Assembly: GCA_022601645.1 (NCBI GenBank)
Contig: JAJACH010000002.1
Location: 445,696 to 509,695, forward strand
DNA from: Chlamydiia bacterium
Lineage (GTDB): Bacteria > Chlamydiota > Chlamydiia > Chlamydiales > Simkaniaceae
Length of the DNA: 64,000 bases
Direction: 5' to 3'
Shown here piece by piece: positions 24,286-56,044 of this stretch; within the stretch, counting starts at the first letter, position 1; every line of letters begins with the position of its first letter. The notes beneath the pieces were generated by a model. The model saw only the letters and a list, made by a program, of their open reading frames with translations. It was not told where the DNA came from and did not search any database. Both the position numbers and the translations under genes were made by a program.

Positions 24286-24347
24286 TTCGCAGCTAAGGGA
24301 TTGCCAAATAATGGCTTCTACGTTACGAGTGGGGAAAGGGGGAATTT

Positions 24348-24755
24348 ATGAGTATTGGACCAGTTGGAGGGGCGGGGGCAAATTATCAACCAAGCCCATC
24401 TCTCTCACCGCAAGATTGGCAGACTGAAATGAATCTTCTTCAAAAAGTTCAAACAGCAACAGCTCCTCTTAAGGAAGATTTAGATACGAAGAGTGCGTCT
24501 GACCTAGTTAAAATTTTTGAAAATGTCAAAACAGTTGCCGAAAGTGCAGGGAAAACACAAGATGCAACAACTAATTCTTATATGAATCGGATTGTCGATG
24601 ATCTGAATTTTGCGATTAATTATATCAACAGCCATGTAGATGCAGATGGGATGGTCGGAAAGAAGAAACCTATCGGATTTTATAAGGAAATCGAGGACGC
24701 GACAACACAGTCTGGGTTAGCTGTAGATCACTGGAACACACAAAAACCAAGTTAA
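24348..24755 (+). CDS. 'MSIGP' small-protein family, copy 1
   Basis: MSIGPVGGAGANYQP... ends ...HWNTQKPS. The initiation region GGGGGAATTTATGAGTATTGGACCA is conserved and shared with copies 2 and 3. Confidence 0.6.
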   Translation: MSIGPVGGAGANYQPSPSLSPQDWQTEMNLLQKVQTATAPLKEDLDTKSASDLVKIFENVKTVAESAGKTQDATTNSYMNRIVDDLNFAINYINSHVDADGMVGKKKPIGFYKEIEDATTQSGLAVDHWNTQKPS

Positions 24756-24779
24756 ACACCATATATTAAGGGGGGATTT

Positions 24780-25196
24780 ATGAGTATTGGACCAACAGGC
24801 GCTTCAGGTGCGGGTTTTCAGTCAATGGGTCCATCAGGTGATTGGCAAAATGAGATGAACATTTTAACATCATCACAAACGGGGATTAATAGTACTCTGA
24901 AAGACCTTCAGAACAAGCCAGATATCTGGAATCCAAGTTTCTATGACATGGGGATTAATATGTTAAAAGGAGAGCTTAGTAAGGCAGGCCAATCTCAAAA
25001 TGCAACTCTCAATAACTTAGTTTCTACCGTGACTAATGATATTCAAGGAGCACTAGATCATTCTACAACGACAGTGACAATTTATGGGGAAAAGCAGACA
25101 GTCCTAGATCCTGAGGCGATGATTCCTTACATGGAACATGCTCAGACGGATATAAAGGCAGTTATTTCCTATTGGAACACACAAAAACCAAGTTAA
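24780..25196 (+). CDS. 'MSIGP' small-protein family, copy 2
   Basis: MSIGPTGASGAGFQ... ends ...YWNTQKPS. Same Shine-Dalgarno/start region and same C-terminal peptide as copy 1. Confidence 0.6.
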   Translation: MSIGPTGASGAGFQSMGPSGDWQNEMNILTSSQTGINSTLKDLQNKPDIWNPSFYDMGINMLKGELSKAGQSQNATLNNLVSTVTNDIQGALDHSTTTVTIYGEKQTVLDPEAMIPYMEHAQTDIKAVISYWNTQKPS

Positions 25197-25223
25197 CATT
25201 ATTTAGGGAAGTAGGGGGAATTT

Positions 25224-25643
25224 ATGAGTATTGGACCAACAGGTCCAGGTGGGGCTAACTACCAACCAATGGATCCGCTAGGCGATGAGCCTATTCCGAA
25301 AAATGCAAAATCTGTTTTAACTCAAATAATACCGAATGTAGAAGGGTTGATCAATCATCCCCCCACCTATGAACCACAAGCAGCGGCAATGGCTTTAGGT
25401 GAGATGTACCAACAGGTTATCGCGCTTGGGAAGGGGCAAAATGCAGCATTCAATCAAGAGCTTGAGCCAGTTGCTTCGAACCTAAAAAATGCTCTAGATA
25501 ACTGCGAAAAGACCGTGACAATACGCGAAGGAGGGGCTCCACCTGTTAACATACAAGAATTCAATCCACAGTGTATTCCTCAACTGCAAGCTGCTGTAGC
25601 GGGAGCAAAATCAGCGCTTGCTTGGATTAACTCGAATACTTAA
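25224..25643 (+). CDS. 'MSIGP' small-protein family, copy 3
   Basis: MSIGPTGPGGANYQP... Same Shine-Dalgarno/start region. The internal KTVTIxxG motif is shared with copy 2. Confidence 0.6.
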   Translation: MSIGPTGPGGANYQPMDPLGDEPIPKNAKSVLTQIIPNVEGLINHPPTYEPQAAAMALGEMYQQVIALGKGQNAAFNQELEPVASNLKNALDNCEKTVTIREGGAPPVNIQEFNPQCIPQLQAAVAGAKSALAWINSNT

Positions 25644-25669: not shown

Positions 25670-26033
25670 AGGCTAAGGAGAGCGTAAGCCGGATTCTGTC
25701 GAGGGCAATCATTCATCTAGGATGCGCATTACTGCGCATCTCAAGCGGCAGCCTTGCCTTGCTTTAGGTGGGGTTTGCAGCACTCTAGATCTCTCTAGAT
25801 GTGGTCCGATCTCAAATCGAGCATTTTCAGCCTGTCTGACGAAACGTCAGCGGAGTGTTTTCTGTTGCACTTTCCGTAGCCTTGCGGCCCCCAGTCTTTC
25901 ACTGGCACCCGTGCTCCCTTCCAAAAAAAAGGGATTGCCACCAGTCCTTAAAAAGGGCGGGGCAGATTGTAAAGTCCAGACTTTCCTCTCCTTGCCTAAA
26001 AGGCAAGCAGCGATTGCCTGCTCTCCTTAGCTT
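25670..26033 (-). ncRNA. rnpB: RNase P RNA (bacterial type A)
   Basis: The minus strand reads ...GGAGAGGAAAGTCTGGAC... (universal GAGGAAAGTCCGGGC box), GTGCAACAGAAAAC (CR-II/III) and CCTAGATGAATGATTGCCCTCGACAGAATCCGGCTTAC. The last is nearly identical to the E. coli 3' region CCUAGAUGAAUGACUGUCCACGACAGAACCCGGCUUAUC. The P1 stem GCTAAGGAGAGC / GCTCTCCTTAGC closes the ends (26020-26031 with 25672-25683). Ends are accurate to a few nt. Confidence 0.88.
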
Positions 26034-55759: not shown

Positions 55760-55870
55760 TCAACTAACCATCAAAGTGATGCAAGTTCGGTTTTTCAGAG
55801 TTAGCTTCTACGTAGTGATTTTTTAACCCGCTAACAGAGAGCGGGATACGTTTCTGCATTTCGTTAAAAC

Positions 55871-55899
55871 TTAAACTAAAATTAAATCTATGCTATAAT
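55871..55899 (+). promoter_or_regulatory. Sigma-70/66-type promoter P1 (TTAAAC-N17-TGcTATAAT)
   Basis: -35 TTAAAC at 55871-55876, a 17-nt spacer, and an extended -10 TGCTATAAT at 55891-55899, followed by CTAGGG. It is homologous to P2, P3 and P4. Confidence 0.5.
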
Positions 55900-55906
55900 A
55901 ATCATC

Positions 55907-56016
55907 TAGGGAAGAGAGTGTATTTAACTTCTTCCCTTAACAGTTGTCCTTTTTAGCGATCTTTTAGGCCATAACCCCCCTTTCATGTCCCTTTTCGCTA
56001 AAAAGGACTTTTTTTT
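55907..56016 (+). ncRNA. Candidate small RNA or attenuator, copy 1 (hairpin plus U-run downstream of P1)
   Basis: Perfect 14-bp stem (55946-55959 with 55995-56008) around a 35-nt loop containing AGGCCATAACCCCCCTTTCATGTCC, followed by T8 (56009-56016). The element is conserved at 57448..57560 with compensatory stem changes. Confidence 0.35.
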
Positions 56017-56044
56017 GGTTTTTTGGGGGATTTTGATGAGTTTT

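Follow-up and report, generated by a model that had tools for sequence, protein, structure and literature searches.

What is the role of two similar hairpins, each standing behind a predicted promoter and ahead of an orphan gene, beside a type III secretion block in a chlamydial genome? The window, the whole 64,000-nucleotide stretch of DNA that was analysed, corresponds to C2:445696-509695 (C2 being contig JAJACH010000002.1) of a 1.78 Mb genome in three contigs with 45% G+C. Contigs identical to the window were found in a sponge metagenome (JAHZIS01) and in a genome bin derived from JAHZIS01, both described in a study on sponge-associated chlamydiae (PMC9666466). Upstream of the hairpins, the minus strand carries the type III secretion block, including cdsD and the gene for a CesT-type chaperone. 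A row of orphan genes without a Pfam match follows downstream on the plus strand. The gene for Hfq was not found in this genome, which is 93% complete; its absence is expected for the phylum. An earlier note had described a duplicated promoter-proximal hairpin with a conserved C-rich loop, and the letters confirm it at 55907-56016 and at 57447-57560.

Architecture of the two units

The anatomy of both copies is established and is the same in outline. Behind a near-consensus extended -10 promoter come, in this order, a 5' hairpin, the linker CCUUAACAGUU, which is invariant and single-stranded, and a perfectly paired stem capped by a 35-nt loop; a run of eight to ten U residues (U8-U10) ends the unit. 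The parts are as follows.

55871-55899, plus strand: promoter P1, TTAAAC, 17-bp spacer, TATAAT, with TG at -15/-14 (TGCTATAAT), read from the sequence
55907-56016, plus strand: candidate small RNA, copy 1, about 110 nt, from the fold and a covariance-model match of 146.7 bits
55908-55937, plus strand: copy 1, 5' hairpin
55938-55945, plus strand: copy 1, single-stranded linker
55946-55959 with 55995-56008, plus strand: copy 1, terminator stem of 14 bp, GTCCTTTTTAGCGA paired with TCGCTAAAAAGGAC
55960-55994, plus strand: copy 1, loop of 35 nt, with the U8 run at 56009-56016
55963-55991, plus strand: copy 1, invariant loop core UUUAGGCCAUAACCCCCCUUUCAUGUCCC, with GGCCAU/AUGUCC as inner helix and AACCCCCCUUUC as apical loop
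57411-57439, plus strand: promoter P2, TTAACA, 17-bp spacer, TATAAT, with TG before the -10 (TGTTATAAT), from a consensus scan
57447-57560, plus strand: candidate small RNA, copy 2, about 114 nt, from the fold and a model match of 63.8 bits
57448-57481, plus strand: copy 2, 5' hairpin
57482-57489, plus strand: copy 2, linker
57490-57502 with 57538-57550, plus strand: copy 2, stem of 13 bp, GTCTCTTTTCAGC paired with GCTGAAAAGAGAC
57503-57537, plus strand: copy 2, loop of 35 nt, with the U10 run at 57551-57560

The predicted start in both units is TAGGGA. P2 agrees with the consensus at 11 of 12 positions and is the best-scoring promoter-like site in the 9 kb between 55000 and 64000. Ahead of the stem both copies carry CTTAACAGTTGTC. 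The loop core UUUAGGCCAUAACCCCCCUU(U)CAUGUCC is invariant, the copies differing there by the insertion or deletion of one U.

Copy 1 folds with -34.9 kcal/mol (z = -4.85) and copy 2 with -40.3 kcal/mol (z = -4.40), and in neither case was any of 200 shuffled sequences as good. The folds contain two elements that the earlier note did not mention: the 5' hairpin, which begins at the predicted transcription start in both copies, and the inner helix GGCCAU/AUGUCC, which is common to both minimum-free-energy folds. It leaves only AACCCCCCUU(U)C open at the apex, unpaired in both folds. A C/U-rich sequence exposed in the loop of a terminator hairpin is one mark of the RepG-like class of small RNAs, and both copies have it. 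The perfect 13-14-bp stems, running immediately into T8 or T10, also have the stable stem and U-run of an intrinsic terminator. The loop of such a terminator is typically 3-8 nt long, whereas here it has 35 nt, partly closed by the 5-bp inner helix, which is unusual for an efficient intrinsic terminator. Short open reading frames were read directly on both strands. They differ between the copies, so the units are taken to be non-coding, and a coding function was rejected.

Conservation between the copies

The differences between the two stems had been interpreted as compensatory change. A covariance model was built from copy 1 alone and copy 2 was aligned to it pair for pair. In this structure-guided alignment of the two copies, 8 of the 14 pairs of the terminator helix are invariant and 6 are changed on both sides; no pair is changed on one side only, and none is broken. 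Paired cells amount to 98%; sliding the 3' partner by 1-3 columns lowers this to 40-57%. A gapped alignment explains the same differences by about three mirrored events (insertion of a U-A pair, one U-A to C-G replacement, and loss of the two innermost pairs), so six compensatory changes is an upper count. Every difference is mirrored and none is disruptive. Since the comparison comprises two sequences, the covariation is suggestive, not statistical.

The distribution of the changes is more telling than their count, as far as an alignment of two copies can indicate. The linker (11/11) and the 27-nt loop core have no substitutions and a single indel. Identity is 73% in the stem arms, 48% in the 5' hairpin and about 55% in the DNA upstream of the promoter. 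In order, the linker is identical, the 5' arm changed, the loop identical, the 3' arm changed, and the T-run with the adjoining repeat identical. A single gene-conversion tract cannot yield this mosaic, because identical and changed segments alternate. The duplication is old, as the proteins encoded downstream of copies 1 and 2 share only 26% identity over 113 aa. High conservation alone is not proof of RNA function here, because the GC-rich repeat adjoining the units is also 90% identical between the copies.

Distribution of the units

The pair is unique in its genome. The loop 20-mer TTTAGGCCATAACCCCCCTT occurs exactly twice in the window, where 0.02 occurrences are expected, and twice in the whole genome of 1.78 Mb. 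Ten perfect stems of 10 bp or more stand before T6 in the genome, and only these two combine a 13-14-bp stem with a 35-nt loop. The other strong terminators of the genome have loops of 3-6 nt.

The loop-core search of related genomes that the earlier note had proposed yielded no further copies. BLAST of the 39 genomes of the family (38 others) returned no homologue, and a covariance model made from both copies (R2), run on the same 39 genomes, matched nothing outside its own genome. In 301 genomes of the order, the 20-mer with 3 mismatches gave matches at the control level. An exact 16-mer occurred at 77 loci in whole-genome and metagenome contig collections, none of them with the linker, the 3' part of the loop or the terminator context, and these loci are judged to be chance matches. 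Rfam gave no gathering-level match at the units. RsaE (RF01820) and the other curated C-rich small-RNA families stayed below the gathering threshold. A permissive scan of 55860-57860 gave sub-threshold matches only, most of them on the GC-rich repeats and two on the minus strand overlapping the loop of copy 2. The sole gathering-level match in the window is RNase P RNA, a bacterial class A molecule at 25670-26029 on the minus strand (186 bits).

The 270-aa protein encoded downstream is an orphan, with no relative among 5.8 billion proteins, and the other assemblies that carry its gene are 100% identical to the window and therefore add no variation. Syntenic intergenic regions in ten relatives held no recognisable counterpart of the RNA, only loosely similar promoters and G5 ribosome-binding sites. 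Even the closest of these relatives reach no more than about 50% identity in the chaperone gene, which puts non-coding homology out of reach. With no homologue in Rfam, the family, the order or the whole collections, the two copies are the only comparative data.

GC-rich palindromes and a third unit

Behind each terminator lie two GC-rich palindromic repeats, and a further unit of the same design but unrelated sequence is found 14 kb downstream of the two copies.

56017-56127 and 56154-56238 (56017-56238 overall), plus strand: two GC-rich palindromic repeats after the copy 1 terminator
57561-57675 and 57702-57785 (57561-57785 overall), plus strand: two GC-rich palindromic repeats after the copy 2 terminator
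C2:515945-516066 (L129:6946-7066): third unit

A profile search found 12 copies of the palindrome in the genome, each about 85-115 nt and all on the plus strand. Eleven of them fall within C2:501.7-521.8 kb, among co-oriented orphan cassettes, at the places listed above and at C2:513729-521825. The twelfth stands directly 3' of a tRNA gene at C1:139282-139396. Away from the two hairpins the palindromes come after an ordinary terminator, after stop codons or after the third promoter-to-terminator unit. The arms are built from T-tracts and A-tracts that recur with a phase of about 10-12 nt. Pairing of the hairpin loop with the UUUUGGGGGAUUUUG flank of these repeats was considered and rejected, as direct reading gave only 5-6 bp.

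The third unit has an extended -10 promoter, a 5' hairpin, a single-stranded pyrimidine-rich stretch CUCCUCUCUAAC (CUCCUCUCU), and a 13-bp terminator stem with a pyrimidine-rich loop AUACACACUCUCUCUCAGUA (ACACACUCUCUCUCAG); its fold has z = -7.1. Downstream of it are three repeats of the GC-rich kind and another promoter. Intergenic units made of an extended -10 promoter and a terminator number 11 genome-wide, and the three in this island are the cleanest.

Two further sequence features recur in the island. The motif TTGCAGGT(A/T)T is found 3' of GC-rich repeats and before the next promoter, at about 56281-56290, about 57319-57328, about L129:4870-4930 and L129:7457-7466. Between GC repeats and the proximal promoters of the cassettes, at 56320-56410 and L129:7500-7640, the DNA is strongly G+T-rich over 100-150 nt.

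Predicted targets of the loop

Duplexes between the loop and the initiation regions of 1688 crudely called genes were scored, with 60 mononucleotide shuffles and 60 C-run-keeping shuffles of the loop as controls. The ten best duplexes average -29.5 kcal/mol, against -26.0 +/- 1.3 kcal/mol for shuffled loops, and none of the 120 shuffles was as strong. This excess arises because GGCCAUAACCCCCCUU complements a G-rich Shine-Dalgarno sequence together with UUAUGGCC. Initiation regions that score below -16 kcal/mol are no more frequent with the true loop (314) than with shuffled loops (303 +/- 58 and 252 +/- 42). The expectation that targets would score better than shuffled controls is thus borne out at the top of the list and fails for moderate matches, and the target prediction is suggestive only. 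Contiguous complementarity is at the chance level, 12 nt at most. A long antisense target was accordingly rejected for the loop, and likewise for the linker and for the seeds of the third unit.

Two sets of genes had been proposed as targets. The G-rich initiation regions of the MSIGP genes exist as described; the one that was scored (24780) reaches -21.7 kcal/mol, beyond the cut-off of -20.4 kcal/mol that marks the 5th percentile of all initiation regions. The MSIGP genes are three tandem paralogues of 135-139 aa at 24337-25643, each preceded by AGGGGG(G/A)AUUUAUG. The proposal that the loop pairs with the ribosome-binding site at 57920 did not hold up, as this duplex is unremarkable (-13.8 kcal/mol, 33rd percentile). 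The ribosome-binding sites immediately downstream of the two hairpins, 56477 and 57920, have median energies and were dropped as main targets. The best candidate lies slightly further upstream.

57872-57892, plus strand: most promising candidate target, UAAGGGGAGUUGUGGCUUAAC, within the leader of the gene behind copy 2, 30-50 nt 5' of the 57920 ribosome-binding site

Here the invariant loop is predicted to form 18 bp, including 2 G-U pairs, with one bulge. The duplex has -27.6 to -29.1 kcal/mol, and 2% of 300 loop shuffles were as good. Because of the two G-U pairs, this pairing is open to the plus-strand RNA only. When both genome strands were scanned with the 20 invariant bases, the site ranked fifth among non-self sites. 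Its net cofold gain is small, -2.8 to -4.8 kcal/mol. Ninth among the non-self sites comes the initiation region at C2:522143, which belongs to a 474-aa gene of the same island. The secretion-associated island, 25 kb or 1.4% of the genome, thus holds two of the top nine sites, both on the sense strand and at gene 5' ends; by a post hoc calculation this has roughly p = 0.002-0.01. About a dozen effector-like genes with plausible starts use runs of G6-G9 as ribosome-binding site.

The leader of the 57920 gene reads AAGGGGAGUU GUG GCU UAA at 57875-57892 (AAGGGGAGUUGUGGCUUAA). The reverse complement of the loop, on the minus strand at 55963-55982 and 57507-57526, reads AAGGGGGGUU AUG GCC UAA (AAGGGGGGUUAUGGCCUAA). 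Each has the form of a Shine-Dalgarno sequence, a start codon, an alanine codon and a stop codon. The resemblance suggests that the loop may be an inverted copy of the leader element.

Small RNA or cis-acting element

Six promoters of the island share (TG)nTATAAT, a spacing of 6-7 nt and TAGGG at the predicted start. Further promoter-like sites lie just upstream of the genes that follow the units.

55891-55911 (P1) and 57431-57451 (P2): TATAAT-TAGGG promoters preceding small-RNA-like units
About 60006-60020 (P3), about 63706-63726 (P4), C2:518274 and C2:520133: TATAAT-TAGGG promoters predicted to precede mRNAs directly
56406-56434, plus strand: proximal promoter-like site, TTGAGA, 17-bp spacer, TAAAAT, TG, 43 nt 5' of the ATG at 56477, from a consensus scan only
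57838-57866, plus strand: proximal promoter-like site, TTGACT, 17-bp spacer, TAGTAT, TG, upstream of the 57920 gene, from a consensus scan only
L129:7641-7668: proximal promoter-like site of the gene behind the third unit, TG-extended -10, consensus match only

An open reading frame of about 60 aa after P3 (60098-60283) shares an N-terminal motif with the 490-aa gene after P4 (63894 onward), AVHDARTKDGVLSTTV against AVHEARSKDGMLATAV, and looks like a truncated paralogue of it. The leaders of both contain GAAGGGGTGAGG.

The earlier note had left the choice between a small RNA and an attenuator. As an attenuator, the hairpin would be a conditional terminator in a cis-acting leader, relieved by a factor or an alternative fold; P1 and P2 would be the real cassette promoters, and the short RNA would be a by-product like the transcripts between phage PR' and tR'. 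All three island units do stand upstream of a gene in the same orientation, and P1 and P2 have the TGnTATAAT-N6/7-TAGGG form of the promoters that directly drive mRNAs. The purine-rich 5' ends are loosely like the 3' arms of the terminators on direct reading, and the loop is complementary to the site in the leader downstream of copy 2. There is precedent for promoter-proximal transcripts that are terminated and also serve as small RNAs (PMC7547250). The matching leader site of copy 1, however, is weak (-17.6 kcal/mol). No antiterminator common to both copies was found in folds truncated before the 3' arm of the terminator: copy 1 retains its 5' hairpin, in copy 2 the 5' end is paired to the loop instead, and the 5' arm is not engaged in a shared way. 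An attenuator would also call for a gene with no other promoter behind the terminator, whereas a separate proximal site with a TG-extended -10 precedes the gene at all three units, by consensus match only, and the 360-460 nt from terminator to start codon include two long GC-rich palindromes. The missing antiterminator, this palindrome-filled distance and the predicted proximal promoters favour an independent small RNA. The small-RNA half of the original alternative fits the anatomy; the attenuator half is the weaker reading and, in our estimate, rather unlikely to be right.

A simpler view takes the hairpin as plain punctuation, the terminator or insulator of the upstream gene beside an unrelated promoter, with loop and linker kept alike by concerted evolution of a repeat-rich block. 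Both hairpins lie about 190-200 nt past the stop codon of a co-oriented gene, and like any intrinsic terminator they have a perfect stem directly followed by U8-U10. Homogenisation is plausible, since the GC-rich repeats beside the hairpins share 76-90% identity from one copy to the other and about 85% with further repeats in the island. The mirrored changes in the arms could have come from template switching in a palindrome, a process that can mirror mutations in quasi-palindromes without selection. The alternating mosaic, on the other hand, goes beyond one conversion tract. A terminator needs no invariant core of 27 nt in its loop, and the candidate differs from an ordinary intrinsic terminator in its A/U-rich stem and in a long loop with a conserved core, the other strong terminators of this genome having short loops. 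A near-consensus promoter about 40 nt 5' of the hairpin, present in both copies and in the third unit, would be unexpected of punctuation, which we regard as unlikely. The hairpin and palindromes could instead act as DNA, serving a cassette array as a site for recombination or protein binding with a loose likeness to integron attC, the loop being conserved as the binding site. The eleven palindromes between co-oriented orphan cassettes in one 20-kb stretch speak for this, as does the twelfth next to a tRNA gene, a classic integration site; on direct reading the mismatches in the repeat arms have no consistent G-U bias on either strand. Yet only two places have the hairpin with the C-rich loop, and the other sites with GC-rich repeats lack it; a promoter with 5' hairpin and U-run is a transcriptional signature, and attC consensus boxes are not evident to our own reading. 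An element acting as DNA is highly improbable.

Proposed mechanism

We give about an even chance to the reading that the units encode two paralogous small RNAs, transcribed independently, which use the terminator loop to pair with G-rich ribosome-binding regions and need no Hfq. Each unit would be transcribed from an extended -10 promoter of the sigma-70/sigma-66 type. A protective 5' stem-loop would open the RNA, followed by a short conserved single-stranded linker, and the RNA would end at an intrinsic terminator whose hairpin is its working part too. The apical region GGCCAUAACCCCCCUU would be kept single-stranded or weakly paired; it is complementary to a G-rich Shine-Dalgarno sequence and start codon (AAGGGGGG..UUAUGGCC). 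Without Hfq, the loop would pair with the G-rich ribosome-binding regions or 5' leaders of a few mRNAs, many of them for effector-like orphan proteins encoded near the type III secretion genes. The pairing would block 30S binding or alter mRNA stability. The hairpin may also terminate transcription from the upstream gene.

We infer transcription, termination and every target in this scheme from sequence. The small-RNA reading is supported by the promoters, the fold z scores, the mirrored stem changes and the mosaic around an invariant loop and linker, the rarity of the element, the third unit, the absence of Hfq, the top duplexes and the precedents of RepG and sX13. It is weakened by the number of sequences, which is two, the lack of a homologue, the 35-nt loop, the counts of moderate matches, contiguous pairing at chance level and the small cofold gain. 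An extended version, which we think quite improbable, equips each secretion-associated cassette with a regulatory module of its own, in which a strong promoter is combined with GC-rich palindromes and a terminator-loop small RNA. The 5' leader of the cassette gene would recur, inverted and diverged, as the loop of the RNA in front of it, the RNA having been born by inverted duplication of the initiation region of its target, and it would now time or cap neighbouring secretion substrates and other G-run genes in the developmental cycle.

Comparison with known small RNAs

RsaE/RoxS of Firmicutes behaves like sX13 of Xanthomonas in setting C-rich motifs against G-rich sites. Three C-rich loops are present in sX13 and two C-rich motifs in RsaE; the candidate RNA differs in having one C-rich loop, and in matching no Rfam model. 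Helicobacter pylori, the bacterium of RepG, is not known to have Hfq. The C/U-rich terminator-hairpin loop of RepG binds a homopolymeric G-run that lies in the 5' leader of an mRNA (PMC8295292). The candidate is like it in that the proposed seed is the C/U-rich loop of the terminator hairpin, in a genome with G6-G9 ribosome-binding sites. It differs in having no sequence or Rfam similarity, in belonging to another phylum, and in a loop that adds an anti-start-codon segment (CCAUAA); its targets are predicted. The C-rich loops of sX13 repress, without Hfq, mRNAs that have G-rich motifs at or near the translation start, and sX13 affects type III secretion genes (PMC3771888). For the candidate the association with secretion is one of genome position only. 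IhtA of Chlamydia is a small RNA that inhibits translation of a developmental gene (PMC3469542). The likeness is that of a small RNA of the same phylum; the difference is that no Rfam family reaches the gathering score on the unit and no covariance-model match appears in 38 family genomes. The candidate RNA lies outside every curated family; with about an even chance, we rate it a new, lineage-restricted molecule of a design already known.

Significance

The pairing of a C-rich loop with a G-rich initiation region is well established in other phyla, so the finding would extend a known principle and add no new one; judged by its predicted features, the candidate RNA looks like an ordinary kind of bacterial regulator. 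To our knowledge, the only Chlamydiae with described regulatory RNAs, such as IhtA, are those of the pathogenic genus Chlamydia, and we know of none described for the large environmental and symbiotic part of the phylum. If expressed, the RNAs would be the first small-RNA example for the environmental and symbiotic chlamydiae. Together with the third unit they would then link Hfq-independent regulation directed against ribosome-binding sites to orphan cassettes beside type III secretion genes.
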